Source: Acidimicrobiaceae bacterium (GTDB taxonomy: Bacteria; Actinomycetota; Acidimicrobiia; Acidimicrobiales; Aldehydirespiratoraceae). Taken from it: a DNA stretch of 64,000 bases. The notes under the pieces were generated by a model, which saw only the letters and a program-made list of their open reading frames with translations, made no database searches and was not told the DNA's origin. Below are positions 6,982 through 56,018 of this stretch, piece after piece (positions within the stretch are counted from its first letter, which is position 1; every line of letters begins with the position of its first letter). The stretch spans positions 39,168-103,167 of the forward strand of contig JAPPJC010000049.1 in the NCBI GenBank assembly GCA_028820455.1, in the 5' to 3' direction. Made by a program: the position numbers and the translations under genes.

Positions 6982-7010
6982 CGGGTCAAGTTCTGTTAGT
7001 AGATGAATCG

Positions 7011-9126: not shown

Positions 9127-9306
9127 TCATCACACTGAGCAGCCATTCAGACGCTACAGCGGTCGCAGGCAAACCGCGAGTACACAGTAGACTCTAGGCT
9201 ATTACCTAGGGCATTGAAGAAACCACCCCGTGAGTGTTTGACTTCGGGAATAACGGATACTTGGATTCCGGTGGATTTGGGACTGAGGAACCTGATATGG
9301 GTTGGT

Positions 9307-11881: not shown

Positions 11882-11957
11882 ACGTAACCGGATTCGTGAG
11901 GGTGGAAACCCCGATGTCACACCACCAAAGTACATGTAGGATTGTAAGCTGGTTCGT

Positions 11958-17275: not shown

Positions 17276-17568
17276 TGAGCACACTCGCTGGCATCAGTAC
17301 ACCAACACCGCATGTCGCGCGAATGCTGCCACAACTACCTGAAGACACCAAAGAGGTCGGTGGTGGTATCGCATGCCGCGCGAATGCTGCCACAACATGA
17401 CAACGCTCGTTCTTAGCTGTAAGGTTGCATTTGCCGGTCACTCCATCGGTTCCAGGCAGGACTCTGTGGTGAACAGAACAAAACCGCGGGCGGAATTGTG
17501 ATAGGCAAAACCGTGGAGAACAGAAGTAGGTATTGGAGGTGAGTGGATTGTTGTTTGAAAGCCAGATA

Positions 17569-20910: not shown

Positions 20911-21897
20911 TCACCCCCACCGGAAAGTGCCAGCAGGCTTATCGGCAAAACCGTGCATCATAATATAATCCAAAAACAGCATATAATGATTTATACATTT
21001 ATGTGGAGACAAGCATTCCATCCCCAAATCCGACAGCAATGTCTTATACCCCTTCTTCGATTTAGGACCCCAGTCCCCATCGTATGGAACTTCCTTATCA
21101 GTAAAATCTGTGAACGCCACAATACAATCCTGCAGGAAATAGTGACATGTTGTATAGGTCGTGCCAGTGCTACTGGTTTTAAGTCTTAGTGCCACTGGAC
21201 AGCCATTGTCAACATGAAAATGATTGTGATGTCTATCAATGTTCCGGTTGACAACATAGCCGAACCACTTACGCAATCCCGCCTCCACTGCTACTAACCT
21301 ACGATGTCTCGTAAGACTACGGCCCACTTCACCTGCAGCGTTGCACGGACGTGATGCCACATTACCACTCCACTGCACCCATGCAATGTCAAGTGCCCGA
21401 GCATCACAATGATAGCTAAGGTCCCCAGACGCACACCCACTTGCAGGCCTTTGAGCACCTAGGTGCCCAATGACTTCCATATTTCCATATCCATGGCCAT
21501 AAGTACGAGAAAAATAATCGGTATTGACAACAAACGAATCCAAAGGCTTCTGCATCGAAAGGTCGCATTCGAAGCTGCCTGGTTGATCGAATATCAAATC
21601 CCCGTCGTCATCACGCAATTCATCCATCGTTGCATCTAGATCGCATGTTGTCCAGTGCCATCCACTTGTCCTAGGCTGCCCAGTTAAGCCAGGTTGAACC
21701 GTCCGGAATTGGACTCTGAGGTTGTTATTCCCTGCGTCTGTAATGCGAGTGCCAGGAGGATTATATCTTGTGGGACGGTGCCTGTCATATGAGCATGTCG
21801 GTATGGTATCTATGGGTTGTTGTGGCATGTGATGATTGTTGACTACTATAGACATTAAAGGTGTGCTTTCTAGTGGCATCGGCTGTTTGTTTGACAT
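20911..21897 (-). CDS. Family B paralog B5 (LAS/M15-like peptidase)
   Basis: 328 aa. YHCDARALD (H-x6-D), RHHNHFHVDNGCPVALR, YDGDWGPKSKKGYKTLLSDLG, HYMLFLDYIMMHGFADKPAGTFRWG. Exact start uncertain. Confidence 0.8.
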   Translation of the reverse strand: MSNKQPMPLESTPLMSIVVNNHHMPQQPIDTIPTCSYDRHRPTRYNPPGTRITDAGNNNLRVQFRTVQPGLTGQPRTSGWHWTTCDLDATMDELRDDDGDLIFDQPGSFECDLSMQKPLDSFVVNTDYFSRTYGHGYGNMEVIGHLGAQRPASGCASGDLSYHCDARALDIAWVQWSGNVASRPCNAAGEVGRSLTRHRRLVAVEAGLRKWFGYVVNRNIDRHHNHFHVDNGCPVALRLKTSSTGTTYTTCHYFLQDCIVAFTDFTDKEVPYDGDWGPKSKKGYKTLLSDLGMECLSPHKCINHYMLFLDYIMMHGFADKPAGTFRWG

Positions 21898-21938: not shown

Positions 21939-23021
21939 TTATGATTGCGGTGATATAAGGGTTCGTTCTTTCGTGAACGGTAATGTCATCAGATTAAGTT
22001 TCGGAGCGCATGACAGGTAGGGGTAAAATGCTTCTGCATCGGGTAACACCAAAGGTTGCAGCTCAGCTTCTGGTGGTAGTACAAAAGTGGTGGCAGCAGA
22101 GTTGGCACCGCAGGTAACGAACTCCCCGGTTGCCGCTAATGACACCCAGGTCACACCCGAATAGCACGGAAGGTGCGCAGGGTGCACTGTGAGCAAGAAC
22201 AGTTCGCCGTTGTGCTGTGCCTGGGATGTCCAGCGGATACCATCAGATCTTATTGGATCACGCATCGCATAAGACCGCATCTGCGAGCCCGTGTCTATAT
22301 GCACCCAGTCCCCTTCGGTGTGTACGGATATGTTAGATGAACCTGTGCGTGCAACTTCTAACAGTTCTTGTGACGGTGCATCGGTTCGTTGTGCTACACC
22401 ACCCCAAGGAACCCAATACGTACCATTGGCAACACCTTCAACACCACCGATTTCGATACCACGGTCATCGTGCACCACCATAGCGATTTGGCCTAAGCAA
22501 TCAATCCGCAAACCAGACAACTCCAACTGTGGATATTCCTTATCGGCAGGTGGATCCCAACTCCAAAAACGCAATAACCAAACCGACTTTTTGTGGCTGG
22601 GCCACAGTTGCACAAGCCCGTGGAACGGCCACTGTGGTGCGGTGCCATCAACAAATCTTATGAACTCAGGCTTCTTTAGCGCAGGAGCTGTTGTAGTTGA
22701 CGGGACTTGCGGTTGAGAAGTCGTTGTGGGTATAGTCTGTGGTGCGTTTGTAGGCGGTTTCGATGTTGAATCTTCTGGTTGTGGTATAGTCGTACCATCT
22801 AGAGACTCCAATGGTGTCAGAGTTTGACTATCCGCTGATTCTTGTTCGCTATCCGATGTGCTCTCATCCTTATTTCCGGAAGCTGGCAGTTCTGTCGTGA
22901 AGTTACCATCTATCGTGCTAGAGACTTGTGAATCTTTCTGTGGGGTTCTGTTACTGGCGCAAGCGGCGCACACCATCAGCACCGATGCTACTAATACCGC
23001 CAGAGCTTGCCCGTTTATCAC
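21939..23021 (-). CDS. Family A paralog A5 (predicted lipoprotein)
   Basis: 360 aa. MINGQALAVLVASVLMVCAACASN. APQWPFHGLVQLW, RFWSWD, HLPCYSGVTWVSLAATGEFVTCGAN. Confidence 0.85.
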   Translation of the reverse strand: MINGQALAVLVASVLMVCAACASNRTPQKDSQVSSTIDGNFTTELPASGNKDESTSDSEQESADSQTLTPLESLDGTTIPQPEDSTSKPPTNAPQTIPTTTSQPQVPSTTTAPALKKPEFIRFVDGTAPQWPFHGLVQLWPSHKKSVWLLRFWSWDPPADKEYPQLELSGLRIDCLGQIAMVVHDDRGIEIGGVEGVANGTYWVPWGGVAQRTDAPSQELLEVARTGSSNISVHTEGDWVHIDTGSQMRSYAMRDPIRSDGIRWTSQAQHNGELFLLTVHPAHLPCYSGVTWVSLAATGEFVTCGANSAATTFVLPPEAELQPLVLPDAEAFYPYLSCAPKLNLMTLPFTKERTLISPQS

Positions 23022-23483: not shown

Positions 23484-24824
23484 ATGCATCCTATAGGCTA
23501 CGGCAAGCTCATCGGGTTTGTTGCGATGATGCTTTTGGTGGTCGGTGTGTTCGTCGGTTCTTTCCCATTACTAGCAAGTTCTGACAGCACGCCTTCTGAC
23601 AGTATGGTATTGACAATGCTATTGGCGGCGTCTGAAACCCCACTACCGCAATCGTCAGGAAGTTCTGGGGTTGGTGTTGGTGTCGCACAGCAGATGTTGG
23701 CGGGTTCTGAGGTTGCTTTGCGGACGGGTGTGGGTGCTGCGGTGGAGTTTTCTGATAGTGCTGATGATGATGGTTTGGCACCGGTTTGGCCTTTCCGTGG
23801 GATTGTGGATTTCGGGAAGGACGAGGATGGGGAGTTTGTGTTGCGGTTTTGGGACACTGAGTCTGGTGTGGTGCATGATGTGCCGCTGGGAGCTATGTCG
23901 GAGGGCGAACCGTGCTGGTTTTCTGTTAATCTTGGTTCTCTTGATCATTATTCTGATATTTATGCTACTGAGGAGTTCGTGTTAGCCAGATTCGCTGACG
24001 ATATTTCTTTTTGGCGTAGCCGGGATAGGTGGCATGTTGTTGTTCCGTGGGGTGATGAGGCGTATCCTGTTGTGTGGCCTGAGATTCTTGTGGAGTCTGG
24101 GTTGGACGGGTTGTCGTTGGGTGAGGGTTTTGAAGCGGCTGGCTTTAATGGGTTTTCGCCCGCGTCTGGGTTAGACCCGTTGCCGTTGGGTGAGGGTTTT
24201 GAAGTGTCTTTTGCGTATAATGACTATCCTGATCATAAGGGTGTGTTACATCTTGTTGCTCCGCGTGATGAGGCTTATTACGACTGGGAGTTGGATGGCC
24301 TGGATTACGATTACATGGATGAGTATCCTCAGGAGGTCGCTGATGAGGTGATTAGTTCTGAGTGTGACCGGATTTCTTATGAGTTTGCTATTGGTGTTGG
24401 GTTGATGTTGGGTGAGCCTCCATCTGATCCTGTTGATTTTTTTGAGTTTTCGTCTGTGGATCATCCCCGCTTTTATGATTACAATGAGTGGGTGAGGGGT
24501 GCTCTTCAGGCTCGATTTGATGGCACTGATGGCTATCATTATGGTTTCACTATTATTATTCCAGCATTGGAGGGCGGCGGTATTTCAGACTTGTGGAGTT
24601 TTGTTGTTGCGGGTGATACTGGTGAGGTTGTCGCCTGTCGTAGAGTGTCTGAGACTGCGGTTGGGCCTTTGCTGGTGAAACCTGAGGGTTGGCCTGATCT
24701 TGTTGACCGTTTTGTGCTGCCGGAGGCTTTTTCTGGTTCTGTGTTTTCTGGTTCTGTGTTTTCTGGTTCGGATTGTACTGTCACCGGCGAGTTGCTCAAC
24801 CTGCCATTTGGTGGAGGGTCATGA
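23484..24824 (+). CDS. Family C paralog C11 (long subtype)
   Basis: 446 aa. TM segment IGFVAMMLLVVGVFVGSF. APVWPFRGIV, VPWGDEAYP, GTDGYHYG, AGDTGEVVAC. SGSVF x3 near the C-terminus. Confidence 0.8.
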   Translation: MHPIGYGKLIGFVAMMLLVVGVFVGSFPLLASSDSTPSDSMVLTMLLAASETPLPQSSGSSGVGVGVAQQMLAGSEVALRTGVGAAVEFSDSADDDGLAPVWPFRGIVDFGKDEDGEFVLRFWDTESGVVHDVPLGAMSEGEPCWFSVNLGSLDHYSDIYATEEFVLARFADDISFWRSRDRWHVVVPWGDEAYPVVWPEILVESGLDGLSLGEGFEAAGFNGFSPASGLDPLPLGEGFEVSFAYNDYPDHKGVLHLVAPRDEAYYDWELDGLDYDYMDEYPQEVADEVISSECDRISYEFAIGVGLMLGEPPSDPVDFFEFSSVDHPRFYDYNEWVRGALQARFDGTDGYHYGFTIIIPALEGGGISDLWSFVVAGDTGEVVACRRVSETAVGPLLVKPEGWPDLVDRFVLPEAFSGSVFSGSVFSGSDCTVTGELLNLPFGGGS

Positions 24825-25033: not shown

Positions 25034-26023
25034 GTGACTGGTTGTTTGGATTCTCCTAGCTATGCAGATAGGTATCAGTCGGTTGGAGGTGTTTACCGTT
25101 ATAGGGGCCGAGTGAACGGTGATGCTTTGGAGCAGATTTTCACTTTGGGGAATGAAAATTTGACTGTAGATGTTCGGAGGGTGGTCAATTGGCCGGGAAT
25201 GGGTGAGCCTAGGCTTTGTAAGCTTGATCAGCAGGATGTAACACTTGCTGAATGGGAAGGGAGAGAAGTGTCTGTGTTTGGTGATCCGTATGATGAGAGT
25301 AGCGGTTCCGGGTGTGATGTTCATCGTGATTTGGTGGCACCGTTGAATAGTGCTGCTGTGAATATTGATTATTTTTCTCGGGTTTTTGGTGATTATGGGA
25401 GGCTTAAAGTGATCGGGCAGGGTGGCACTATAAGAACTGAAGAGAGATCCACTCCTAGTTTCCACTATCATGCTAAGGCTATGGATATTTGGTGGGTGGG
25501 TTGGGAGGATCAGCAACAGGATGGGACTGTGGTGCATACTGCTTCGCGTCCGTGTAAAGGTGGGGGTGAGGTGTCTTCGGGTTTGACGGCTCATCGTCGG
25601 CTTGTCGCGGTGGAGGCGGGTTTGCGCAAGTGGTTTGGCACTGTTTTGAACCGGAACATCGACGGTCATGATAATCATTTTCATGTGGATATCGGGTGTC
25701 CTGTGGCTTTGAGGGTTAAAACCGCAAGCTCACGTGGCAAGGATTCGGCTCATTTTTTCTTGCAGGATTGTATTGTGGCGTTCACAGATTTTACTGATGA
25801 GGAAGTTCCATACGATGGTGATTGGGGTCCGAAATCGAAGAAGGGTTATGAGGCTTTGTTGTCGGATTTGGGGATGGAGTGCTTAGACCCGATTATGTAT
25901 GTGAGTCATTATATGCTGTTTTTGGATTATATCATGATGCATGGTTTTGCTGATAAACCGGCTGGTACGTACCGTTGGGGCGATAGAGTACTGGTTTTGG
26001 ATGACGGGTCCAGCAGTGCTTAG
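25034..26023 (+). CDS. Family B paralog B6 (LAS/M15-like peptidase)
   Basis: 329 aa. Starts MTGCLDSPSYADRY. FHYHAKAMD (H-x6-D), DNHFHVDIGCPVALR, YDGDWGPKSKKGYEALLSDLG, HYMLFLDYIMMHGFADKPAGTYRWGD. Confidence 0.85.
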   Translation: MTGCLDSPSYADRYQSVGGVYRYRGRVNGDALEQIFTLGNENLTVDVRRVVNWPGMGEPRLCKLDQQDVTLAEWEGREVSVFGDPYDESSGSGCDVHRDLVAPLNSAAVNIDYFSRVFGDYGRLKVIGQGGTIRTEERSTPSFHYHAKAMDIWWVGWEDQQQDGTVVHTASRPCKGGGEVSSGLTAHRRLVAVEAGLRKWFGTVLNRNIDGHDNHFHVDIGCPVALRVKTASSRGKDSAHFFLQDCIVAFTDFTDEEVPYDGDWGPKSKKGYEALLSDLGMECLDPIMYVSHYMLFLDYIMMHGFADKPAGTYRWGDRVLVLDDGSSSA

Positions 26024-26130
26024 TGTTAGTGTGTGTGAGAGCCGCTGGTGTGTGTTTTAGTGGTGTTTAGTGTTAGTGTGGGATCTGGTGGGTGGGGGTT
26101 GTTGGGGTAATGGGGTTTGGTGGTTTTGTG

Positions 26131-27150
26131 ATGCGTTTGGTGGGACTGTGTTTGGTGGGGGTGTTGTCAGTGGGGTGTGGTTCTGGTGAGTCGGATGGGG
26201 TTGGGGTGGATGAGCTGGTTGATGAGCCTGTTACGACTACGACGGTTGTGGGGGATTCGGGGGAGGATGTGACGACGACGTTGGTGCCTGATCCGACACC
26301 TGAGGTGACGGAGCCTGATCCGGTGCCTGTTACGACTACGACGGTTTTGGGGCCAGCTTCGGTTGTGTGGTCGTTGTTGCATAGGCCTGAGTTTGTCGTG
26401 GGTGTGGCACCTGAGTGGCCGTTTCGGGGTTTGGTGCAGTTGTGGCGTGGTGTTCATGAGTATCAGGATGTGTCTAGGGGTATGTGGGTGCTGCGTTTTT
26501 GGAGTTGGGATCCTACTGTAGAGACACATTCGGAGGTGTTGTTGCCGGATTTTGGGGTTGATTGTTTGGGTGGGTTGGTGTTGGTGTCGCATGGTGAGGT
26601 TGGTATCGAGGTTGGGGGTGCTGTTGGAGCTGTTGATGATGCTTTTTGGGTTGATTGGGGTGGTAGCCCGCGAAGAGTGGAGCCTTCTGAGGTGTTGTTG
26701 GAGGCTGCGGGATCGCGTCCATCCAATGTTCCTGTTGAAACCGAGGGTGATCTGGTGCGTGTTGGTGAAGGATTACAAGCGCGTTCTTATGCGATGCGTG
26801 ATCCGTTACGCTCGAATGGTCAGCGTTGGGATGTGCAGGCTCGTCATGATGGTGACTTATTCGTGTTGAGTGTGCATCCTGCACACCTAGAGTGTTTGTC
26901 GGGTGTAACCTGGTTGTCGTTGGCTGATACTGGTGAACTCGTAGCCTGCGGTGCTAACACTGCTGCCACCGTGTTCGTCACACCCGAACCACCCGACGAT
27001 AGAGGCAGTGGTGGTGACCATAGCGGTAATGACGACAATGGTGGTGGTCTTGTGATGCCCGACTCCGAAGTCATTGGTGTTTACTTGTCTTGTCCTGTTC
27101 CTTTAGACCTGGAATCGGTCTCCCTTCCCGAACTCAAACGGACAAACTGA
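26131..27150 (+). CDS. Family A paralog A6 (predicted lipoprotein)
   Basis: ORF 26092..27150. ATG 26131 gives MRLVGLCLVGVLSVGCGSG (good lipobox). APEWPFRGLVQLW, RFWSWD, HLECLSGVTW, ACGAN. Carries an extra Gly/Asp-rich insert near the C-terminus. Confidence 0.8.
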   Translation: MRLVGLCLVGVLSVGCGSGESDGVGVDELVDEPVTTTTVVGDSGEDVTTTLVPDPTPEVTEPDPVPVTTTTVLGPASVVWSLLHRPEFVVGVAPEWPFRGLVQLWRGVHEYQDVSRGMWVLRFWSWDPTVETHSEVLLPDFGVDCLGGLVLVSHGEVGIEVGGAVGAVDDAFWVDWGGSPRRVEPSEVLLEAAGSRPSNVPVETEGDLVRVGEGLQARSYAMRDPLRSNGQRWDVQARHDGDLFVLSVHPAHLECLSGVTWLSLADTGELVACGANTAATVFVTPEPPDDRGSGGDHSGNDDNGGGLVMPDSEVIGVYLSCPVPLDLESVSLPELKRTN

Positions 27151-44078: not shown

Positions 44079-45803
44079 TTACGTCTCCCCACTGGCTGTC
44101 TCGAGATGGGTGACGGGATGGATCTCATAAACAAAGTCGATGATTTGGTCTGCGACCTGAGCTACTGGCATTTGCTTCAGGTTTTCAGCGGAGAGTTTCT
44201 TTTTGAGCATGGGCCATGTCTCCTCGGCTAACTCAATCTTTGAAAACTCGCAGTCCCACCGTCTCCATACAGTCTTTATGTCCTTCTTCTGTTTTCTGGC
44301 TTTCGCTAACTGTTTCTCGATTGCCTCAATCTCTGGTATGCAGTTGCTAATATGATCTGGTTTTCGTTTCGCCACTCTCTGGATTCCCAAGGCTAACTCC
44401 TCATCTGTGAAGTTGGCGAACTCAAAGCATCCACCATCTCCCCAAGTCCTTATAACGACTAGATGCTCGATGTCGGAGCGGCGCACTCTTGTTCGGAACT
44501 CATCTGGCAGAGACTCTATAATACTGTCTACTACCTGTTTGTGCTGCTTTTCCACTTTCTGTGGCGTACTATAACGGCTTTCGGGATCGACCACGACCAC
44601 GAATGCGGTCAAGGGTCGCAGCAATAGAAAAGCATCCCCATGGTCAGGATGCACTTCAGGGATGGCTATTGACCGAGCAACAAGTTTTGGGTCACCGGAT
44701 ACACTCTTGAGATTTACGAACTTCACCAATCTAGAGCTTGATCCAGGAGCGACCAACTTAAGCACACGAGGCACTATCATCATTTCGGTGTCCCCTTCAA
44801 CAGCCACTACGACAGTAGGCGTATTCTCAAGTCGATAGTCCCGTAAGGTTTTTGCCCGTTCAACGTAATCAACTTTTAGTCGATCGGGTAGCAATGGAAA
44901 ACCCTGAGCAGAATACTCCTGTAGCGGCTCTGCATAGCCGTCTGCCGCCAGATCCTCGTAGTATTGGAGGATCATCTCAGCAGCTATTCGTAGTTCCATA
45001 GCATTTAAGGCATCGTATCGGAGATCTTCCCAACGACGTGGAGTGGCTGCTTTAACGACTCGGTGCCAATCACCGAGTGGGTCGAAGGAACGCGCGTTAG
45101 CAAGCCAGAATTCCGCTTGCTCGCGGAGCGTAGTAGGCTTAATACTCGATAAGAGTTGTCGCTCCACATTAGGACTGGAAAGTACATAGTCACGTATTTG
45201 TTCAACCGAACCAATACATGAGATTCTTCCAAGCACCCTGGGCGTGTATCTCGGAGCGAGAACCTCAAGTACTATAGAAAGAGCTCTCATCTTGCGAGTC
45301 ATATCCACATAACTAGGCCGTAGGCGAGGGTGATCGTACACCATCCGGTCATCGAGTATCTGCACATTCCTGTGCAATCGTTCAATGACCGATGATATGC
45401 CCCGTAAGGCTAGAAGCTGAAACCATGAGTAGCGGACCCCAATGTGAAGGGTAAGGGTATGACGGGAGTATGATTTTGGCCATGGTCGAAAACGGGTTTG
45501 TAGAGGATCACGTAACTGACCGTGGAGACTAGCCTCATATAGTATAGATCTGTACATGGAGTACTGCTTAGGAGGATAGAGATCCACACCTGGCTCTACC
45601 TTACGTGCATATATACGAAATAAAGGTATCAGTACACGGATCTTATGTAAATACATAAGTAGATCCCTGTTGACATTGAAACCACGTTTCTTCGCTTCTT
45701 GAATGAATCCATTCACATCTAGTAGAGGTCTCTGGGAAAACGCGAACGGCATAGGCAGCAGATCAAGACTAGAAGGAACGACACCAGGTTTAATCTTGTG
45801 CAT
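44079..45803 (-). CDS. Standalone TOPRIM-like (OLD/DUF4276-type) domain protein with unknown N-terminal half
   Basis: 574 aa. VVVAVEGDTEMMIVPRVL (the EGxTE motif of OLD-type Toprim) followed by FVVVVDPES. The ~330-aa N-terminal region has no motif I recognise. Visibly more AT-rich than its flanks. Confidence 0.6.
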   Translation of the reverse strand: MHKIKPGVVPSSLDLLPMPFAFSQRPLLDVNGFIQEAKKRGFNVNRDLLMYLHKIRVLIPLFRIYARKVEPGVDLYPPKQYSMYRSILYEASLHGQLRDPLQTRFRPWPKSYSRHTLTLHIGVRYSWFQLLALRGISSVIERLHRNVQILDDRMVYDHPRLRPSYVDMTRKMRALSIVLEVLAPRYTPRVLGRISCIGSVEQIRDYVLSSPNVERQLLSSIKPTTLREQAEFWLANARSFDPLGDWHRVVKAATPRRWEDLRYDALNAMELRIAAEMILQYYEDLAADGYAEPLQEYSAQGFPLLPDRLKVDYVERAKTLRDYRLENTPTVVVAVEGDTEMMIVPRVLKLVAPGSSSRLVKFVNLKSVSGDPKLVARSIAIPEVHPDHGDAFLLLRPLTAFVVVVDPESRYSTPQKVEKQHKQVVDSIIESLPDEFRTRVRRSDIEHLVVIRTWGDGGCFEFANFTDEELALGIQRVAKRKPDHISNCIPEIEAIEKQLAKARKQKKDIKTVWRRWDCEFSKIELAEETWPMLKKKLSAENLKQMPVAQVADQIIDFVYEIHPVTHLETASGET

Positions 45804-46146: not shown

Positions 46147-46398
46147 CTAGTACGCAACTTCGGATGACATCACGATCGGCGGTCCCAGCCTCTCGAAGGC
46201 CTCATCAAAAATCTCCGTAGCCAGGTTCACGAGCCCTTCGTCTATCAGCTGCTCCAGAGCACCGCCCGGAGGCACTACGGGACTCAGACGCGCCACAGGC
46301 ACTCCCCTAACGGTGATCTCATAGGTCTCTCCTTCCGCCACCCGGCGAAGCCACCGACTGGCATGCTGCCGCAACTCCCGAACCCCGATCGTCTTCAT
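46147..46398 (-). CDS. Phd/YefM-type antitoxin (no adjacent toxin)
   Basis: 83 aa. MKTIGVRELRQHASRWLRRVAEGETYEITVRGVPVARLSPV. No PIN or RelE ORF lies downstream. Confidence 0.75.
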   Translation of the reverse strand: MKTIGVRELRQHASRWLRRVAEGETYEITVRGVPVARLSPVVPPGGALEQLIDEGLVNLATEIFDEAFERLGPPIVMSSEVAY

Positions 46399-47555: not shown

Positions 47556-48593
47556 TCAGTCGCTATGACCAGCAGAGTGTATAAGGTTGGAAAGGTCAGG
47601 ATTGTCTGGATAGTCATCAAGCATTGCCTCTATTAGTCGCGACAATGTAATGTTTGCACCACCACCGCCACGATTGAGGTCTTGCAATGCTGACCACCAG
47701 ATTGAGTGTCCGTCGCCTGTGACTTGGAGTCTTGAGGGATCGCCTCCGGCACGTTCCCAGATCGAACGATCTGTTGGACCCTGGGGGTATAGTTTCGTCA
47801 CGAGATTGTGGAGCGTGTGGTCGCCTCCAACGGGAGAGACGTGTGAGAGTTTCGCGAGCAGTTCGAATGCGAAGGCCGCGGCATTGGAGGCGGCGATAGT
47901 CTGACTACCGCTTGCATCAGCTGCTGTCTTGTTGTCAAGTAGATCCGAGATCGCTCGGATCGCCAATCCATCAGCTCCCACGGTTGCGGCGGCTTTTGTG
48001 ACGCCCACATCCTCCATGGCAACTGCCACAGCGTCACTGAATGTAGATCGGATGCGGTTGGCGTCAGCAGACTGACTTGAGGCGATGACGCGTTCACCGA
48101 CGACGATCGGAGCTACGATCGCTTTTGGTGTCAAAACGTCAACAGCATCGCAGCGTCGGCGGGATAGCCATGAGCCGTCCGTTGCGATCATCCTCGCGAC
48201 CTGCACGAGCCTAGTCGAGACAGGGCCTACGTCGGGCCTTGATACAACGTGATCGCCTTCGCTTCTCCCAGATTCGGCCCAATAGATTTTGCTAGACGCT
48301 ACAACATCGCCCATCCGTACGTCTTTCACTCCACCAGCTACGCCAACCATGAGCACGATCTTTGACCGTAGGTTTATTGCAGTTTTGGTCGTCAGTGTAG
48401 CAGCGTCAATATTGCCCGGCCCGCATTCAATGATGCCCACGCTTATTGTTGTTGTGTCAGTGGCGAATCGGCCGATATCGACAACCGTTGCTCCTATACT
48501 ACGAGTGCGGAGGCTGTCAAGATGTTCCCGTACGGCGCGGTGCTCTAGTTGCAACGCTGTCACGATCAATGCATCAAGGCGATCGGAGGTCAT
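47556..48593 (-). CDS. Nucleoside phosphorylase-like (PNP_UDP fold) effector fused to a C-terminal effector-associated domain
   Basis: 345 aa. LIVTALQLEH, LMVGVAGGV and AVAMEDVG are typical of PNP/MTA-nucleosidase-like enzymes. The last ~80 aa (LYPQGPTDRSIWERAGGD...LIEAMLDDYPDNPDL) are homologous to the C-terminus of the upstream gene. ATGA overlap. Confidence 0.8.
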   Translation of the reverse strand: MTSDRLDALIVTALQLEHRAVREHLDSLRTRSIGATVVDIGRFATDTTTISVGIIECGPGNIDAATLTTKTAINLRSKIVLMVGVAGGVKDVRMGDVVASSKIYWAESGRSEGDHVVSRPDVGPVSTRLVQVARMIATDGSWLSRRRCDAVDVLTPKAIVAPIVVGERVIASSQSADANRIRSTFSDAVAVAMEDVGVTKAAATVGADGLAIRAISDLLDNKTAADASGSQTIAASNAAAFAFELLAKLSHVSPVGGDHTLHNLVTKLYPQGPTDRSIWERAGGDPSRLQVTGDGHSIWWSALQDLNRGGGGANITLSRLIEAMLDDYPDNPDLSNLIHSAGHSD

Positions 48594-50962
48594 GTTGCTT
48601 TTCGTATGATCTTGAGGTCAGAGTTTTTAGGGTAGTCGCGCAACATCTCCTTGATGAGACTCGCAAGAGTTGGTGCACCTACGGCACCGGTTGTGACTGC
48701 TGCGAGTGCTCTTTCCCAGCACTGCCTACCAGTGCCACACAGCTCTATGTCCGCTTCGTTGCCCCCAGCTCGAGTCCAGATGCCTTTTTGACTAGGCCCT
48801 TTCGGATACAACTTGACTGCTATCTCGTGGATACCAGCACTGAGTTCGTGAGTTGAAGCTGATCCCAACGAACCGAGCACCTTGGTCTTCAAGACTTCAA
48901 GTGGCGACAGGATTCGTTGACACGCAACCTTGGCGGCCACGAGGTCGGGACGTTGTGGAGCGTGAGTGATAATATACTGCGCAGCATTTTTCCATTTCTC
49001 ACGAGCGACGAGTTCGCCGAGCCGCTTTGCATCAGTCCCAAGATCAGCTGCAGCCATTATTGCTTTGGCACTGCCCGAATCTGCATAGGAAGCAAGCATC
49101 TCAATGGCATCGACTGCCTTGGATACGTCGATCACCGCGATGGCTTTCATAACTTTCTGACTCACGACTGCCCTGCTTAGGGTCGACTCAAGGCTGGATG
49201 CTGTAAATCCTTCAAGGGTGACTACTCTGGCAGTTCGGTTGAGAAGACGGGAACGCGCTGGCTCATCAACGATACTCCAGGCCTCGGCACGTCGAGGGTA
49301 GGATGCCAGATTGATCTCATCGCATGCACCGAGTTCGGCTACCAACGACCTCACGTTGCTATCGCCGTTTATGAGGGCGTTGAGAACCGGTTCCAACGCG
49401 TCCCATGGTTCCAACCATGTCCACGGATCAGCACCGTCTTCGACCGCTCGTGCCCAAATAGCCAGCCAACTTGGTGACCCCGTCCGCACCGGTAGAAGAG
49501 CGTCAGCGTCTTGGTGGACGACTTCGGCTGCTAGTTTGATGAGACCTCGCTCATTGAGAGCGACTGCGGCTTTGACCACGCCACGCGGCTCACACCGCGA
49601 TGCGAGTTGTGAGCGTGACTCAGATGTGTGCCCTGGGATGGCAAGATGATCTTGGAATGCTTCAATGGGCTCGCTGGTTGGGCATGACAGGCTGTGGGTC
49701 ATCGGGAGTTGTGCCTGTTGAGCGATTTCGTGCACCCACTCTTGGTTTCCTACGCCATCCACTGAAGCCAGTGCTGTGTCGATCCGTTCTGGAGCGGCCC
49801 GATGTGCAAGTGCTGCGAAGACGGTGCGACGGTTGGCGGCGATGGCTGCTTTGAGGTAGTCTACGAGTGCTTTCCCACGCTCCTTGATCTGTTTGTCAAG
49901 TGCTGTATTTATCGAGACGCATAGCTGATCGCGCGGTTTGGCTGCGATTTCATCCAACGCAGCCTGGAGATCATCTATGCGGCTCGAATCACCGATTACA
50001 GCCGCTGCCCACGGCTCGACTAACGCGCAGAGATTCGATTCAAGATCTGCGAGATCGAGGGTTCGCAGCCCCCGAACGTGCGAGAACGAAGCGTTAGTGG
50101 ATGATTCTGCAAGCAAAGCGACCACTCGTGCTTTGACGACACGTCCGCGCTGTGGTCCCGGGGCTAGGTGGCTGAGTAGATGTGCACATGCGCGGAGTCC
50201 GTCGGGGTTTGAGCTACAGGCTTCGTTGAGGTGCAGGTTCACCTGAGCGAGGTGATACCACTCGCGCAGCGAAGGTGCCACAAAATCTAGTTCAACCGCT
50301 ATATCCAAGTTGCCATCAAGGACAGCCCGACCGGTTTCTCTGGCCATCGGTGGATCATCGCCATTGATTATTGACGTTGAGTCGAAGCGCGCTCGGGACT
50401 GTTCCGGGACCAGGTAGACCCCGAACGTGGTATCGCGTTTGGGGTAGGGCACACTTGTGGGTGTGAACAGCAGACCGAAGACCAGATCAGCGCGATCTGC
50501 CGTGCTAAGTACGTCCCACAACTGGTCAAGAAGCACATCATAAGTCGAGGTGCCCAGCCAATAGACAGGCCGAGATTCCGCCAACAGATCCAGGACAGCA
50601 CCTAGACCCTCGAGGCGGCCACAACTAACGGGAGGAACGGCAGCGGCGTTAGCAGACGTAGCGTGGATACGGAGATCGGCGAGTTCCATCTCGCCCAATC
50701 GATCAATCTCGACAGCGGCTAGCGTTGTTTTGACCATGCCCGACCGATCTGCTTCTGCGTCGGGTTCGGTGAACTGCACCACATAGTAGTCGCGGATCGC
50801 ATAGCCAGCATAGAAGTTGGGCCATGTCGTCGGTGCGTCTGGCGGCAAATCAGTGTGCCAACGGATGGCGTCGAGCATCTCGGTGTCAATGCCTGCTGCG
50901 TCAATCAAGCCGTGTCTACCGCCCGCATCGCCGAAGCGTGCCCACCCGAGCATGTCACTCAC
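48590..50962 (-). CDS. Large adaptor protein (GAP1-like) with C-terminal effector-associated domain
   Basis: 790 aa with no catalytic motif seen. The C-terminal LYPKGPSQKGIWTRAGGN...LIKEMLRDYPKNSDL matches the effector C-terminus. 4-nt overlaps on both sides. Confidence 0.7.
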   Translation of the reverse strand: MSDMLGWARFGDAGGRHGLIDAAGIDTEMLDAIRWHTDLPPDAPTTWPNFYAGYAIRDYYVVQFTEPDAEADRSGMVKTTLAAVEIDRLGEMELADLRIHATSANAAAVPPVSCGRLEGLGAVLDLLAESRPVYWLGTSTYDVLLDQLWDVLSTADRADLVFGLLFTPTSVPYPKRDTTFGVYLVPEQSRARFDSTSIINGDDPPMARETGRAVLDGNLDIAVELDFVAPSLREWYHLAQVNLHLNEACSSNPDGLRACAHLLSHLAPGPQRGRVVKARVVALLAESSTNASFSHVRGLRTLDLADLESNLCALVEPWAAAVIGDSSRIDDLQAALDEIAAKPRDQLCVSINTALDKQIKERGKALVDYLKAAIAANRRTVFAALAHRAAPERIDTALASVDGVGNQEWVHEIAQQAQLPMTHSLSCPTSEPIEAFQDHLAIPGHTSESRSQLASRCEPRGVVKAAVALNERGLIKLAAEVVHQDADALLPVRTGSPSWLAIWARAVEDGADPWTWLEPWDALEPVLNALINGDSNVRSLVAELGACDEINLASYPRRAEAWSIVDEPARSRLLNRTARVVTLEGFTASSLESTLSRAVVSQKVMKAIAVIDVSKAVDAIEMLASYADSGSAKAIMAAADLGTDAKRLGELVAREKWKNAAQYIITHAPQRPDLVAAKVACQRILSPLEVLKTKVLGSLGSASTHELSAGIHEIAVKLYPKGPSQKGIWTRAGGNEADIELCGTGRQCWERALAAVTTGAVGAPTLASLIKEMLRDYPKNSDLKIIRKAT

Positions 50963-51798
50963 AGCGTCAGGAGTTCGCTGAGATCTCCCGTCTTGGACCC
51001 ATTGCTTCTGATGAGATACCCCATCGATTCGGGGCCGTGATCAACGAACTCGGGATCTGGTTTGTCATCGGCTAATGTCCGTCCTTGGGCCGACAAGCCC
51101 ATTACATGATGTCGTGACGGCTCCCAGTTGCCAGCAACATAGGAGTAAAACAGGGGCATGCGCTGCTTGAGGATCATCACGGGAATGACTCCATCGGTGA
51201 TATCAGATATTTCGTCCCAACAGGACAGCACGACTGTGAGATCGGGCGGGAAAGCGTCCGTCAACATATGTCGCTGGCGTTCATGGCGCAATATCTGGAG
51301 GAGTTCCACGAGGCGGATGTCCAAGGGAAGCCCGCGAGACTTTGCTGTTGCTTCCGACATGGGCTCTTCAAACTCTGGGAGGCTAGGCAGGCTAGACATC
51401 CGCTCCACACGGATGAATAGATTCCAGCGGGTCGACCGCACGACGAGGTCGCGCCAGTGTGGGGAGATATTGCGGGTGTTCACAAGTTCATCGATTGCTT
51501 CACCTGGATAATCAGGGATCGACAACCGCAGCATTTCGCCATCCTGTCGTCTCATGGTCAGTTCTTGGATTACCTTTACCCCGGCCGAAGTATGACGAAC
51601 TGGAAGACCTTGAGATAGGCGATCTAAGCCGTCGTGCACGGCAGCGAGGCTCTCTGGTGCACCGACAAGTGAAAGCGTGCTCAATCCGTGCCGTAGTCGC
51701 CCGTATAGCTGCACGAGAAAAGTTGATTTTCCGCTATCCGGCCCACCGACAAGCAGCACTAGTTCTGTTGACGAAGCCGCCCGGCTGACCGTGGTCAT
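50959..51798 (-). CDS. P-loop GTPase-like protein (second of tandem pair)
   Basis: 279 aa. Walker A LLVGGPDSGKST, DYPGE (DxxG), SCWD in the position of NKxD. 4-nt overlaps on both sides. Confidence 0.75.
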   Translation of the reverse strand: MTTVSRAASSTELVLLVGGPDSGKSTFLVQLYGRLRHGLSTLSLVGAPESLAAVHDGLDRLSQGLPVRHTSAGVKVIQELTMRRQDGEMLRLSIPDYPGEAIDELVNTRNISPHWRDLVVRSTRWNLFIRVERMSSLPSLPEFEEPMSEATAKSRGLPLDIRLVELLQILRHERQRHMLTDAFPPDLTVVLSCWDEISDITDGVIPVMILKQRMPLFYSYVAGNWEPSRHHVMGLSAQGRTLADDKPDPEFVDHGPESMGYLIRSNGSKTGDLSELLTL

Positions 51799-52856
51799 GT
51801 CGGCCTCAGCCGTTCGCGGAACCCCAGAAAGGGGTCCAGCTGCCTCGGGTCGTCATGCTCAAGGCGACGGGGTGCAGTTGCCTTTCGGATCGCCTCGTCG
51901 AGTGGAAAGATGGGATCAGGTATTGGGGATCTCCGAATAACAGACAACGGAGTAGCTGCCATCCCGAAGAGTTCGGTGTCGGTATGCTCAAGTGCTTTAT
52001 CAATCGTATCGGGTACAGGGAGATCAGCCTTCGCTCTCACCGGGTAGACCTCACGACCGTTAGCGACCGAAGACACTCGCATGGCCAGATTCTGGTAGGA
52101 ACTTCGAGCGCGTCCTTGATCTGGGCCTGAGAGCGCGTCGGAGTCGGAGAGTAGTACGAATAGATCAGCCCGGTCAGCGATCCATTGTGCTCCAGGTGCA
52201 GCGTCGGCTTCAATGGCCCATTCCTCGAACCACTCGCCTGGAACATCGGTAAAAAACACGTTATATAAGTTTCGCAGGTTCGAAGCGAGCCGGACGTGAA
52301 GCAGTGCTGGCGAGCGGCCGCTCGTAGTGTGTGGAGGGAAACCTCGTGATCCGTTAGGCGGAAACTCGGCATAGTGAGCGATCTGGTCCCATCCCAGAAT
52401 AGTGTAGGACCCGGCAAAGCTCAGACCGTTGCTTTCATAGTCGCGGCGTAGACGGATGAAGTATGCTGCAAGTGCAGATGTTTTGCCCGCGTTGGGTGCT
52501 CCGATCAGTGCCACAACCCGTGGGCGACCGGTACCAGCAATTGCGTTCAAGTCCACGCTGCCGAGAGCGAGCCCAGACCACGGTGGTCGGTCACCCTCTG
52601 TGTATAAGCCACTGCTCTCCGCTCCGTTGGTTTGCCAGTTCTCACACTCCGTTAGCTTAAGATCGCCAAGATGGCAGGGTGTTTTGGGAGCGTAACAGTG
52701 TGCGTTTTTGCATTTGTTTCCGCTGGCAGAGTGACCGCTCGTCAGGCCGTCACTACGATCCGGCTGAGCCGAGTCGACTCCCACCGCAGGCTCTTCGTGT
52801 GCTGGCTCTATAGGTGGGGCATCTACAGCCCCCGGTGCATTATTGTCTGGTGTCAC
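51795..52856 (-). CDS. P-loop GTPase-like protein (first of tandem pair) with Cys-rich N-terminus
   Basis: 353 aa. Walker A LIGAPNAGKTS, FTDVPGEW (DxxG). N-terminal CKNAHCYAPKTPCHLGDLKLTEC. 4-nt overlaps on both sides. Confidence 0.75.
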   Translation of the reverse strand: MTPDNNAPGAVDAPPIEPAHEEPAVGVDSAQPDRSDGLTSGHSASGNKCKNAHCYAPKTPCHLGDLKLTECENWQTNGAESSGLYTEGDRPPWSGLALGSVDLNAIAGTGRPRVVALIGAPNAGKTSALAAYFIRLRRDYESNGLSFAGSYTILGWDQIAHYAEFPPNGSRGFPPHTTSGRSPALLHVRLASNLRNLYNVFFTDVPGEWFEEWAIEADAAPGAQWIADRADLFVLLSDSDALSGPDQGRARSSYQNLAMRVSSVANGREVYPVRAKADLPVPDTIDKALEHTDTELFGMAATPLSVIRRSPIPDPIFPLDEAIRKATAPRRLEHDDPRQLDPFLGFRERLRPT

Positions 52857-53980
52857 GATTCCGGCTCCGGCAGATCAACGGCGCATGCGCTGAGCAAACC
52901 GATAACTTGAAGGTCTCTGAACACCGATTTGGCAGCATCGCCGGGCGTCAGTGTCTCTGGAAGGGTCAGTATTGACATGTCGGGGTCGTTGGCAGCAATC
53001 GCTGAAACCACAAGACCGTATCCGTCGACGCTGACTTCGCGCTTCGGCCCGATTCGTTCCCAAGCTGTTGCCAAGTCTTTGAACGTGATCGACAGCTCCG
53101 TGCCGATACTGCTGGCTATGGCCTCATCTAGCAGGTGCTCGACCGCTGTCGGTGCTGTTAGAGGAGTCAATCGGCGTATGTCTAGTGCTGTGGCGATCGC
53201 GCAAAGTGCAGGGTCGCTGACGTCGGCATACCGCTCACCGAGCACATCCGAATAGGCTGCAAGATGCCACCAAAGCAGACTCTCTCGAAGCAGTGAAGCC
53301 TCGACAACAGCCCACCGGGCTTTGAGTTGCGCTCGAAGTGCACCTCCCAGCTTCTGGGCGAAGGTTTTCAGTTCGCTATCATCCAGTGAGTCGCTGGTTA
53401 CAACCGGCGGCATCCGCAATTCGTCAATGTCGGTTGACGGTAGCCACACGAGGTCGAGACGCTCCGACACGACCGCATCAATCCGCGATATCTCATCTCT
53501 GACTACTTCCTCCCACCGGCCTACCGACACTCCCAACGCCCTAATGGTTCGAAGTACGTACCAGTTGGCTGTTTCGAGGTCCTCGTCATCTGCCGCTGCC
53601 GTGACCGCTGCTTGGAACGTAATAGCCCGCAGCAGTTCGGTAGGAGTCTCAGGGAAGGCGTTGCGCGCTGAGGGCCACTTGTCCAGCAGACAATTATAGG
53701 CGTAGTTCAAGACTGGATCATCGACCGGTGCTGTCGACTCGTCGATGGCACGAAGCAGAGCCGCAGCCAGCTTTGATCGACCTTCGCCCGCTAGCCACTC
53801 AGCCATGTTCTGGGCTGCTTCCCCGGCGTGTTTTAGTCGTTGATCATCTTCACCGAGATCACTTAGCAGTCCCGCCCGAAGCAGGTTCAACAGCAAATGG
53901 TTGGTCATCTGATTCCCTTGATTATAAAGCTGTGACTCGGCCACCGCCGAAGTCGCAGTCTGTTTGTGTACATTGTCCAA
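52853..53980 (-). CDS. All-helical protein, first gene of the GTPase operon
   Basis: 375 aa, Leu/Ala-rich, no catalytic motif. ATGA overlap with the downstream GTPase. An alternative start is MTNHLLLNLL at 53908. Confidence 0.7.
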   Translation of the reverse strand: MDNVHKQTATSAVAESQLYNQGNQMTNHLLLNLLRAGLLSDLGEDDQRLKHAGEAAQNMAEWLAGEGRSKLAAALLRAIDESTAPVDDPVLNYAYNCLLDKWPSARNAFPETPTELLRAITFQAAVTAAADDEDLETANWYVLRTIRALGVSVGRWEEVVRDEISRIDAVVSERLDLVWLPSTDIDELRMPPVVTSDSLDDSELKTFAQKLGGALRAQLKARWAVVEASLLRESLLWWHLAAYSDVLGERYADVSDPALCAIATALDIRRLTPLTAPTAVEHLLDEAIASSIGTELSITFKDLATAWERIGPKREVSVDGYGLVVSAIAANDPDMSILTLPETLTPGDAAKSVFRDLQVIGLLSACAVDLPEPES

Positions 53981-54442
53981 GTATATGTAGTCGTGTTAGC
54001 ATGTCCGCAGTCTATCCTGGATTCATCATGGGGATGCTCAGGTGTGAGGTTCACGGACACGTCCTGTCAGCTCGGTTCTCAGGTGTACCGCGATCTTCGG
54101 CAGGATGAAGCGGGACTTCTTTGGCCGCACGATTGTGTTCCTGTGCGAAACCTCTAATCCTGTGCTTGGCGAAACCTGTACCTGGTTACGACGTAAAGGC
54201 TGGATACAATGCAGCGGTCCGCCTCACGGCCATGATCAAGCACTTGACTTGAACCATGTCAGCGCAGCCGTAGCCAACGAAGCGAGCCTGGCAGTGGCTG
54301 TTCCGAGACGCCGAGCGGTTGTGCTCCCTATGTCATTTACCATGCAATTCATCAATCTTCATCTATATCCACTCATTAAGATCGCGATCTGCTAGCATGA
54401 TCACTCCTTCCAGATAAACCATGTCTTTTCTAAGAGATTCAT

Positions 54443-55384
54443 ATGTATATAGTACATTCAATGGAAGATCGGATGTGCATTGAAGTACTTCTTGAAGAAT
54501 CAAATACGCTGGTTGAAATTCTTGACATAATCGTAGAAGACATGTCCGATCCACGTCTACAGGCGATAGCTGACTCAGCCTGGTACCGCCTCGGATCAGT
54601 CAATGTTCTCATCCGAGATCAAGGTGGAGATGCGGTAGCAGCGTGCCTAGCTCGGGGACTTATAGAGCAAGCAGCATATTGGGATTGGACACTAGCGACA
54701 GGAGTTGGTGTTGATCACCTTGATCGGTGGGCGGTGCTTGAACTGGAGAACTTGTCGCGTCTTGCTGCTGAAATGGATGATGAGGTGTGGCTTGGGTGGT
54801 TAGTACCACCCAGTCTGACTTTAACAGTATCTTCAGGGCCAGCTATTCCGAAGAATCCTGGAGATGCAGTTCGACGACTCGGATCGGGTTTAGACGGGGC
54901 TGTTCTCGGGCCGTTGCAATTTGAGGGCCTGCTGTCAGCGTACCGGATCCTTGATGTGCTTGCACATGGCAACTATATTGGTGCCACAATCCTCTCAGGG
55001 CATCCAGATTCCAAATTGCCTGACTGTCTTGCCGCTATAGCTACGCATTTAGCGGCTGCTAGTGCTACTGCTGTGATGTTCGCTCTCGTCAATGAAGAAT
55101 CGTGTCTGGACGCGGTAGCAGCACAATTCAAGCTCGTGGCCACAACAGCATCTGCGATCCATGGTCTTAAATCGCAATTGTCATTTGTGACGCGGCGACT
55201 GCCTCATGCAAAACGAACACAGCCAGTTGACACAACTTCATCTATATCGCGAATGCCCACAGCTACCGAAGACATGACGAGACTAGGTATTGAGTTTGTA
55301 GATGCAGCTGATCATCTTGTCCAAAGCGTTTTAAATAGTGCTAACCACACAGAATATTGCTGGTGCATGGCTTCCACTGTATAA
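54443..55384 (+). CDS. Hypothetical protein, tandem paralog 1
   Basis: 313 aa, divergent from the GTPase operon. LARGLIEQAAYWDW aligns with AARMLLEDGARWSW of the next gene. AT-rich relative to its flanks. Confidence 0.6.
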   Translation: MYIVHSMEDRMCIEVLLEESNTLVEILDIIVEDMSDPRLQAIADSAWYRLGSVNVLIRDQGGDAVAACLARGLIEQAAYWDWTLATGVGVDHLDRWAVLELENLSRLAAEMDDEVWLGWLVPPSLTLTVSSGPAIPKNPGDAVRRLGSGLDGAVLGPLQFEGLLSAYRILDVLAHGNYIGATILSGHPDSKLPDCLAAIATHLAAASATAVMFALVNEESCLDAVAAQFKLVATTASAIHGLKSQLSFVTRRLPHAKRTQPVDTTSSISRMPTATEDMTRLGIEFVDAADHLVQSVLNSANHTEYCWCMASTV

Positions 55385-55391
55385 CTTTGAG

Positions 55392-56018
55392 ATGGCACAG
55401 TCAAATCTGTTAGTTATTCGTAATAGTTTAGAAGGAAGCCTGGGTAAAGCACTTATGCCAATTGCTGCACGCATGCTGCTTGAGGACGGTGCTAGATGGA
55501 GCTGGTTCAGACACAGTGCGGGGAATGAGATGAGAGGCGAGTCTCTAAAAGCGTTGGTCAATGATGGGATAGACTATCGAGATCGAATAGCTGCGAATCT
55601 TAAATCGGACGGAGTACCTCAGTATATCATTGACCAACTCCTCGGCACTGCCCTCGAAGTTTCTCGCCCCGAATCGGCGACAATACCAACAGCAAAATTA
55701 GATGACATGCTGCGCGGTGCTTACCCTAACCTATCATACATTGATACAACACGAGCTATGTACAGCATATTATCACAATTTGTGCATGCTACACCTATCT
55801 CAAATTGGCATATTCATCGAGATATATTTCCTTCACTCTCAGCACCCATTTATGCTGTATCATTAGAATCAGCTGTTAGAGGATTCGAGCGCATAGCATC
55901 AATTACTCTCCCAATGATGGGTATCGATCTTGAATCCCTAGAGCAACCGTTGAAGAAGATGCGGAAACAGTGTGCTATGATAATTCAGCAGGCAATCCTC
56001 TATCATTTCCTAGGATAG
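55392..56018 (+). CDS. Hypothetical protein, tandem paralog 2
   Basis: ORF 55338..56018. ATG 55392 lies just after the upstream stop. Shares a helical N-terminal motif with the preceding gene. Confidence 0.6.
   Translation: MAQSNLLVIRNSLEGSLGKALMPIAARMLLEDGARWSWFRHSAGNEMRGESLKALVNDGIDYRDRIAANLKSDGVPQYIIDQLLGTALEVSRPESATIPTAKLDDMLRGAYPNLSYIDTTRAMYSILSQFVHATPISNWHIHRDIFPSLSAPIYAVSLESAVRGFERIASITLPMMGIDLESLEQPLKKMRKQCAMIIQQAILYHFLG

Follow-up and report, generated by a model that had tools for sequence, protein, structure and literature searches.

The 64,000-nucleotide (nt) stretch of Acidimicrobiaceae bacterium contig JAPPJC010000049.1 analysed here (the window, to which all coordinates refer) carries five minus-strand open reading frames (ORFs) arranged head to tail at 52853-53980, 51795-52856, 50959-51798, 48590-50962 and 47556-48593. 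In this order, they encode the all-helical GTPase-associated system protein GASH, the two P-loop proteins DO-GTPase2 and DO-GTPase1, GAP1 and an effector with a PNP domain. Each ORF matches a dedicated Pfam family, with E-values ranging from 1e-12 to 2e-61, so that the five-gene observation lies far beyond chance. All four junctions are 4-nt start/stop overlaps. The original prediction, which was made from the sequence alone and listed these same five genes, had read ATGA at every junction; ATGA is present at 48590-48593 and 51795-51798, while the overlaps at 50959-50962 and 52853-52856 are GTGA. All five reading frames are intact, the nucleotide-binding and catalytic motifs are all preserved and no transmembrane helix was predicted in any of the five proteins. 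Judged by its sequence, the locus is an intact five-gene DO-GTPase conflict system of the GAP1-N1 type, with genes that are predicted to be translationally coupled.

Systems of this kind have already been described in silico (Kaur, Burroughs, Iyer & Aravind, eLife 2020; PMC7159879) and have Pfam models. The GAP1-N1 subsystem of these authors consists of GASH, two DO-GTPases (one of them with an N-terminal zinc ribbon) and a GAP1 protein with an N1-type N-domain; PNPase is among its effectors, and arrangements are included in which GAP1 ends in EAD1 and is followed by a gene for an EAD1-fused effector. All components of the window system and their order are the same, with no architectural difference, and the locus is a textbook member of the subsystem. 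The original prediction had pointed to a match with the GTPase-centric ternary systems of a 2020 Aravind-group survey, and the five Pfam assignments bear this out in detail, including the identities that it gave for the helical GASH protein, the GTPase pair and the PNP-fold effector. Two features set the window apart from the systems of Kaur et al. First, it belongs to a lineage of sponge-associated Acidimicrobiia, and its close relatives are in metagenome-assembled genomes (MAGs) of Chloroflexota and Acidobacteriota, outside the phyla that these authors emphasised (Proteobacteria, Bacteroidetes and Spirochaetes). Second, its DO-GTPase2 begins with a low-complexity extension of ~45 residues that is absent from most homologues. 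The NCBI annotation pipeline names the system in part (for example, "GTPase-associated system all-helical protein GASH").

The first gene (52853-53908, minus strand) encodes a 351-residue GASH protein (Pfam PF19994, 3.8e-29). Its ORF is open to a TTG codon at 53980, which the original prediction had taken as the 5' limit of the gene. This TTG overlaps a promoter-like -10 box, and AAGGGA stands ahead of the ATG at 53908, from which translation yields the same 351-residue product as in the ENA gene call; the start is probably ATG 53908 rather than TTG 53980. The promoter-like site itself (53980-54007, minus strand; -35 CGGACA, 16-nt spacer, -10 TATACT) is the sole such site upstream of the operon and constitutes weak evidence, as a scan for promoters and terminators gave counts not above chance (three promoter-like sites in the region, with 3.6 expected from shuffles). 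Similarly, GAP1 may start at ATG 50953, 6 nt past the upstream stop codon and used in the ENA gene call (787 residues), instead of at 50962.

DO-GTPase2 (353 residues; 51795-52856, minus strand; Pfam PF19993, 1.1e-42) is translated from a GTG codon that overlaps the GASH stop codon. A zinc-ribbon-type element of four cysteines (C49, C54, C61 and C71; 52644-52712) lies ahead of the G-domain and is conserved in 76 homologues, as are the Walker A (GAPNAGKTS, 52476-52502), Walker B (DVPGE, 52233-52247) and KxD (RAKAD, 52023-52037) motifs. This cysteine pattern agrees with the zinc ribbon described for one of the two DO-GTPases, with metal binding being putative. DO-GTPase1 (279 residues; 50959-51798, minus strand; Pfam PF19975, 2.4e-61), which overlaps its upstream gene through ATGA, contains Walker A (GGPDSGKST, 51721-51747), a switch-I-like H69-T70 pair, Walker B (DYPGE, 51499-51513) with an invariant E100, SCWD (51214-51225) and GLSAQG (51082-51099), in keeping with the invariant columns of a 20-sequence alignment. 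The Walker strings of the two proteins are those quoted in the original prediction. Both GTPases retain Walker A, the threonine of the HT motif and DxxGE, together with KxD in DO-GTPase2 or SCWD and GLSA in DO-GTPase1, and the Walker B glutamate is invariant or at least 90% conserved across homologues. Other P-loop families in Pfam and NCBIfam match these proteins at the level of Walker A only, which argues against their being non-GTPase housekeeping NTPases. A PDB sequence search with a DO-GTPase1 profile returned nothing meaningful, and an NCBIfam scan of the five proteins returned no family above its cut-off and no equivalog match.

GAP1 (790 residues; 48590-50962, minus strand), the gene for which overlaps the DO-GTPase1 stop codon, was modelled with AlphaFold2 from a 19-sequence alignment (mean pLDDT 87.2, pTM 0.58). 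The model has four parts: the GAP1-N1 alpha/beta domain (residues 1-102, 50657-50962; Pfam PF20012, 9.8e-13), a second small alpha/beta domain (residues 120-200), an alpha-solenoid (residues 209-700, 48863-50338) and a C-terminal EAD1 (residues 704-789, 48596-48853) that forms a helical bundle. The Pfam match of this EAD1 (8e-5) scores 23.5 bits, 0.7 bit short of the 24.2-bit gathering cut-off. The domain is confirmed by its mutual match to the EAD1 of the PNP protein (7e-15, 39% identity).

The effector, a 345-residue protein encoded by the fifth gene (47556-48593, minus strand), combines a PNP/MTA-nucleosidase fold with a C-terminal EAD1 (residues 261-339, 47577-47813; Pfam EAD1, 1.1e-9). 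Its PNP domain (residues 9-246, 47856-48569; Pfam PNP_UDP_1, 1.4e-13) aligns with structures of methylthioadenosine/S-adenosylhomocysteine (MTA/SAH) nucleosidases (4e-8 by sequence, 4e-14 by profile). The catalytic residues E17, M193, E194, R213, S216 and D217, which correspond to E12, M173, E174, R193, S196 and D197 of Escherichia coli MtnN, are invariant in 126 family members. Specifically, D217 (codon 47943-47945, motif RAISD) aligns with MtnN D197, which we take to be the counterpart of the aspartate mutated in Cap17 (D472A) and DtcC (D353A). A housekeeping MtnN/Pfs identity was considered for this protein and was rejected for three reasons. First, its best NCBIfam matches, futalosine hydrolase and MTAN, fall far under the equivalog cut-offs (scores of 56.2 as opposed to 169 and of 36.6 as opposed to 73.8). 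Second, the domain is fused to EAD1, whereas MtnN/Pfs is a stand-alone enzyme of ~230 residues. Third, V102 of the hydrophobic 5'-alkylthio pocket of MtnN is replaced by K or R in the PNP family, in which several further basic residues are invariant.

A comparative scan of one genome per species identified 79 loci across phyla. The order GASH-DO-GTPase2-DO-GTPase1-GAP1 is kept in 65 of the 68 loci with enough flanking DNA, the exceptions being one degraded copy and two loci in which GASH is too divergent for detection; the cassette is conserved as a unit. No conserved sixth gene (SLATT or a regulator) flanks the 79 loci. As no flanking gene family is common to more than three of them, the cassette is self-contained and mobile. 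The effector slot is variable. PNP is fused to the C-terminus of GAP1, with no EAD1, in 25 loci, and the window configuration (GAP1-EAD1 with PNP-EAD1) is found in 15. In 27 loci, mainly of Proteobacteria, GAP1-EAD1 is paired with caspase-EAD1, while two loci (one in a cyanobacterium) have an EAD1-trypsin effector and one has a GAP1::CHAT fusion. Relatives that are 64-68% identical to the window GAP1 carry EAD1, and one at 69% (P0131) carries PNP in its place; from these sequences, the toggle between tethered and fused effectors is recent among close relatives. Because P0131 has PNP where the window GAP1 has EAD1, EAD1 would act as a tether, and this Rosetta-stone-type support, the best evidence available, argues that the two EAD1 domains stand in for a covalent link.

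The components differ sharply in conservation, taken as median BLAST bits per residue with respect to the window proteins across loci. The slow-evolving parts are the EAD1 domains (0.59-0.80) and the GTPases (0.55 for DO-GTPase2 and 0.54 for DO-GTPase1), followed by the PNP domain (0.39) and GAP1-N (0.26). GASH (0.13) and the GAP1 solenoid (0.11) evolve fastest and, as the most divergent parts, would be the best candidates for sensing surfaces.

On balance, we favour the interpretation that the window locus is a GAP1-N1-type DO-GTPase conflict system in which GTPase-gated assembly activates an adenine-nucleotide nucleosidase, resulting in abortive infection. In this model, the two paralogous TRAFAC GTPases would form a heterodimeric nucleotide switch bound to GAP1, and the fast-evolving helical parts (GASH and the GAP1 solenoid) would sense the invader. 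The GTP state would then license assembly of the GAP1 complex, and this assembly would gather the EAD1-tethered PNP domains into an active oligomeric form; in sister systems, caspase, trypsin or TIR domains would be gathered instead. Enzymes of the PNP, caspase, trypsin and TIR types need oligomerisation for activation or form their active sites where subunits meet. Once active, the PNP domain would cleave the N-glycosidic bond of adenine nucleotides, most likely ATP/dATP as in Cap17 and DtcC, and the infected cell would be arrested or killed before completion of the phage cycle. GTPase-gated nucleotide depletion leading to abortive infection is a reasonable inference from the composition of the locus.

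Several points weigh against this interpretation. The GTPase heterodimer, sensing by GASH and the solenoid and activation by induced proximity are putative steps of the model. EAD1 domains from the same operon show no convincingly greater identity than non-cognate pairs (35% and 34%, respectively; median cognate rank 8 of 39). The similarity of the PNP domain to Cap17 and DtcC, the validated ATP nucleosidases, is weak and is no better than its similarity to housekeeping MtnN. The effector is unique in having a histidine (H18, CAC at 48540-48542) directly after the catalytic E17, at a position that is Arg in 99% of the 126 family members; likewise, its Ser77 stands at a position that is 99% Pro in the family. 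As the counterpart of residue 18 in active Cap17 is Leu, H18 need not inactivate the effector, and H18 and S77 could be either attenuating changes or harmless variants. Full-text searches of a literature library identified no experimental study of any DO-GTPase system, in agreement with the original prediction, and the host of the window locus is an uncultured MAG. Finally, a scan with the defence catalogue PADLOC v2, which holds no model for the four core proteins, recovered the PNP domain alone, through its CBASS "Effector PN-superfamily" model (3.3e-15).

Four alternatives were considered, each of which is less likely than GTPase-gated depletion of adenine nucleotides. The best of these, though an unlikely one, is that the system is immune but that its nucleosidase acts on a substrate other than ATP (NAD+, AMP/ADP, MTA/SAH or a nucleic-acid base), with a lethal step unlike that of Cap17 and DtcC. 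The window PNP domain is 31% identical to a Cap17 fragment over 65 residues (the Cap17 sequence compared was truncated), 23% identical to DtcC over 147 residues and 23% identical to MtnN over 247 residues. These scores are comparably weak, making ATP specificity an extrapolation, and we do not claim that the domain belongs to a clade with the validated ATP nucleosidases. A PDB search with a PNP profile found MTA nucleosidases only and no Cap17-like or DtcC-like structure. The NCBIfam matches to futalosine hydrolase and MTAN, which stay well short of their cut-offs, and the unusual H18 could likewise be taken to favour another substrate. MTA/SAH, however, is disfavoured by the conserved basic residues that replace the 5'-alkylthio pocket of MtnN, and the domain partners of the nearest relatives favour ATP. 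An exhaustive PNP search recovered 4222 cluster representatives at E ≤ 1e-3, of which 1023 reach E ≤ 1e-30. Among the 71 close relatives longer than 400 residues, TIR is present in 12, NACHT in 7 and NB-ARC in 6, while others carry STAND NTPases, TPRs, SEFIR, CHASE2 or FGE-sulfatase; the closest relatives without EAD1 (~40-50% identity) are fused to TIR, NACHT, NB-ARC, STAND, TPR and FGE-sulfatase modules. Rousset et al. (2023) found that the PNP domains of Cap17 and DtcC cleave ATP/dATP to adenine and a sugar triphosphate (consistent with the statement in the original prediction that PNP effectors of Detocs and CBASS deplete ATP), that defence needs the catalytic Asp and that a "Cap17 clade" occurs in NLR-like, TPR and FGE-S contexts, a partner set with which that of the window PNP relatives agrees. 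Furthermore, two of the loci collected here (L014 and L037) are from Rhodonellum psychrophilum DSM 17998 and Spirosoma oryzae DSM 28354, for which Table S4 of the same study records genes of the Cap17 clade that had no recognised defence context. By analogy with these enzymes, the window PNP domain is likely to be specific for ATP.

Quite unlikely is a role of the PNP domain as a signal generator, with the released base or a ribose-phosphate derivative serving as second messenger for a downstream executor. Such a role was proposed for PNPase domains in ternary systems by Kaur et al. (2020), who also pointed out that some nucleotide-related effectors of GAP1-N1 systems come with a SLATT pore protein. 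The window operon, in contrast, has no SLATT or receptor-like gene and, as described above, neither a protein with a transmembrane segment nor, across the 79 loci, a conserved sixth gene. The same slot in sister loci holds the terminal effectors caspase, trypsin and CHAT, and the immune PNPs tested by Rousset et al. (2023) deplete ATP directly. We assign a similarly low probability to a function other than defence against invaders, with the operon acting as a GTPase-regulated housekeeping or developmental module or as an addiction or selfish module that stabilises a carrier element. Carriage by plasmids and a phage (see below) fits addiction as well as defence, and Kaur et al. (2020) frame these systems broadly as conflict or programmed-cell-death systems. 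Against this stand the patchy and mobile distribution, the swappable toxic effectors, the location in a defence island and the existence of decayed copies (L022, L075, L077, L079 and that of an Enterobacter kobei plasmid), which are typical of costly accessory immunity; a housekeeping role is further disfavoured by the lack of housekeeping homologues and of any NCBIfam equivalog match. That the window copy is an inactive relic is very improbable: H18 and S77 replace residues that are 99% conserved, and an IS1595 transposase gene and an apparently split gene adjoin the operon, but the five frames are intact and tightly overlapping, every catalytic and nucleotide-binding motif is kept and residue 18 is matched by a Leu in active Cap17.

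The favoured interpretation, GTPase-gated activation of a nucleosidase, places the window system beside several better-known systems. Like Cap17 (type III CBASS) and DtcC (Detocs), the effector is a protein of the PNP_UDP_1 fold, shares their catalytic Asp and is encoded in a multi-gene defence-type operon, and by analogy the expected outcome, nucleotide depletion and abortive infection, would be alike. The upstream logic, however, is unrelated to that of those systems: the window system has no CD-NTase or SLOG sensor, histidine kinase or receiver, and activation would instead run via the GTPase/GAP1 platform and EAD1. With Pfam and PADLOC, no kinase or receiver domain that would indicate Detocs was found in any of the five proteins; similarly, no CD-NTase that would indicate CBASS is among them, and the PNP domain alone matches a CBASS effector model. 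Avs/NLR-like STAND NTPases with an N-terminal PNP, TIR or caspase domain are analogous in having an NTP-dependent switch and interchangeable effectors that would be activated by proximity. The STAND switch is a single ATPase, however, whereas that of the window comprises a pair of small TRAFAC GTPases and a separate scaffold in a five-gene system. The MoxR-vWA (VMAP/iSTAND) ternary systems that Kaur et al. (2020) also described share the EAD1 adaptor and the pool of effectors (PNPase, caspase, trypsin and TIR) with the window system, but are built around an AAA+ MoxR chaperone and a vWA protein rather than a GTPase pair and GAP1.

A more speculative proposal concerns the N-terminal domain of GAP1. 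Residues 1-102 of the AlphaFold2 model have the topology beta-beta-alpha-beta-beta-beta-alpha-alpha, a longin-type order; a model of the isolated N-region was weaker (pLDDT 66.6, pTM 0.72). G11, H17, D38, A71, R73, M76 and V77 are invariant in 20 diverse loci from across phyla. Foldseek searches with the full-length model returned generic alpha-solenoids only (TM-score ≤ 0.18), and those with the isolated N-region returned no match at E ≤ 1e-3; the top ranks of the latter search, none of them significant, were enriched in longin GTPase regulators (TagF, the GATOR1 NPRL subunits, Lst4, FLCN-FNIP2 and the SEA complex). When 20 diverse GAP1-N domains were scanned permissively against Pfam for longin or roadblock families, GAP1-N1 was the sole match, and PDB sequence searches with GAP1 and with a GAP1-N profile produced no meaningful match. 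Longin GAP complexes carry their catalytic arginine in the longin domain (PMC12290439); a longin-type fold for GAP1-N is not mentioned by Kaur et al. (2020). Based on the model, it is conceivable, if doubtful, that GAP1-N1 is a bacterial longin-type GTPase-regulatory domain with Arg73 as an arginine finger acting on the DO-GTPase heterodimer. In that case, GAP1 would be a GTPase-activating protein in the literal sense, and the system would represent, among prokaryotic immune systems, the counterpart to the Rag GTPase/longin GAP logic (GATOR1, FLCN-FNIP and C9orf72-SMCR8), with effector release timed by GTP hydrolysis. The likeness to the Rag GTPases and their longin GAPs (including NPRL2/3 of GATOR1) is one of analogy only and consists of two paralogous GTPases with a dedicated partner, a predicted longin-type topology and an invariant arginine. 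The window proteins show no detectable sequence similarity to them, the structural matches are sub-significant and the two groups differ entirely in biological role.

GTPase-centric conflict systems are so far known from computational prediction, and the gating of bacterial immune effectors by small TRAFAC GTPases is hypothetical. By itself, the window locus adds little beyond the 2020 prediction, but it offers a clean and intact example whose effector is easy to assay. If the proposed mechanism holds, a GTPase-based switch would join the ATPase-based (STAND and AAA+) switches of prokaryotic immunity and would parallel the immune GTPases of eukaryotes. New here are the clade of sponge symbionts that extends across phyla, an instance from a cyanobacterium, figures for the conservation of the cassette, the recent switching of effectors between fusion and tethering, a phage-borne copy, the contrast in evolutionary rate among components and the tentative longin-like GAP1-N. 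The comparative set also offers matched GAP1-fused and EAD1-tethered effectors, swaps between PNP and caspase, the phage-borne copy and intact Pseudomonas homologues.

Some copies of the system are carried by mobile elements. Leptospira phage LkmZ_Bejolso9 (KF114878, 13374-19959) encodes a complete set of GASH, DO-GTPase2, DO-GTPase1, GAP1(EAD1) and PNP(EAD1) adjoining an integrase gene, with these genes annotated only as hypothetical, "50S ribosome-binding GTPase" and "phosphorylase family protein". DO-GTPase1 homologues were also found on 19 plasmids, 13 of them conjugative. The single plasmid locus inspected, on the E. kobei IncHI2 plasmid pCTX-M_SCLZS19 (4660-11283), is a degraded caspase-type system beside an integrase gene and an IS3 element on a clinical conjugative resistance plasmid. 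Its GAP1 is split (655 and 158 residues) and its DO-GTPase1 is truncated and lacks the P-loop region; from its sequence, this copy is probably inactive. A megablast search of this plasmid copy against complete E. coli genomes gave no match. Chromosomal copies are pseudogenised in L022, L075, L077 and L079. The first of these, at 8822-12269 in an Acidobacteriota MAG, is a close relative of the window system (DO-GTPase1 is 51% identical), in which the GAP1 and PNP genes are broken into several ORFs and are decaying. The cyanobacterial locus, at 5706-12385 in an Oscillatoriophycideae cyanobacterium MAG, is a full GAP1-N1 system with an EAD1-trypsin effector; Kaur et al. (2020) described such systems as almost wholly absent from cyanobacteria.

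Proteins identical to those of the window are annotated in NCBI as hypothetical or EAD1-containing in an "Acidimicrobiaceae bacterium" MAG, and the scaffold derives from metagenome assembly ROBB21-1. Nearest among genomic relatives are the sponge symbionts Ca. Poriferisodalis and Ca. Spongiisocius (Acidimicrobiia), followed by Dehalococcoidia and Acidobacteriota MAGs. The region of the window from 28 to 64 kb is a defence island that includes a type I restriction enzyme with HsdM and HsdS, a further methyltransferase, the PADLOC families "Helicase" and PDC-S01, a Phd antitoxin, an IS1595 transposase and GmrSD. Divergent from the operon, at 54443-56018 (plus strand), are two overlapping ORFs (313 and 226 residues) that match no Pfam or PADLOC family. 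Both match a single 623-residue ORF upstream of the Ca. Poriferisodalis system (L003, 1333-3204; 9e-8 and 5e-73), so the window copy of this gene looks split or frameshifted. A 574-residue protein (44079-45803, minus strand), also without a Pfam or PADLOC family, is encoded between PDC-S01 and the Phd/YefM antitoxin gene (46147-46398, minus strand), which has no adjoining ORF of at least 80 residues that could encode a toxin partner.

Directly abutting the defence island, positions 1-27200 of the window are occupied by an array of three paralogous gene families with many repeats and no Pfam match at E ≤ 1e-3. Family A (12-1187, 3417-4436, 7984-9126, 17533-18648, 21939-23021 on the minus strand and 26092-27150) looks secreted and has a T/P-rich linker. 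Family B (1294-2286, 5954-6763, 10952-11881, 15381-16013, 20911-21897 on the minus strand and 25034-26023) contains a motif, HYHGKAxDI...HHNHFHVDN, that resembles LAS-type zinc peptidases, with weak Pfam hints of Extensin-like_C (0.05) and Peptidase_M74 (0.11). Family C has approximately 11 copies, including those at 2283-3317, 4531-5835, 13829-15217 and 23484-24824. The coding strand of the array is strongly skewed, with G in excess over C and T in excess over A.

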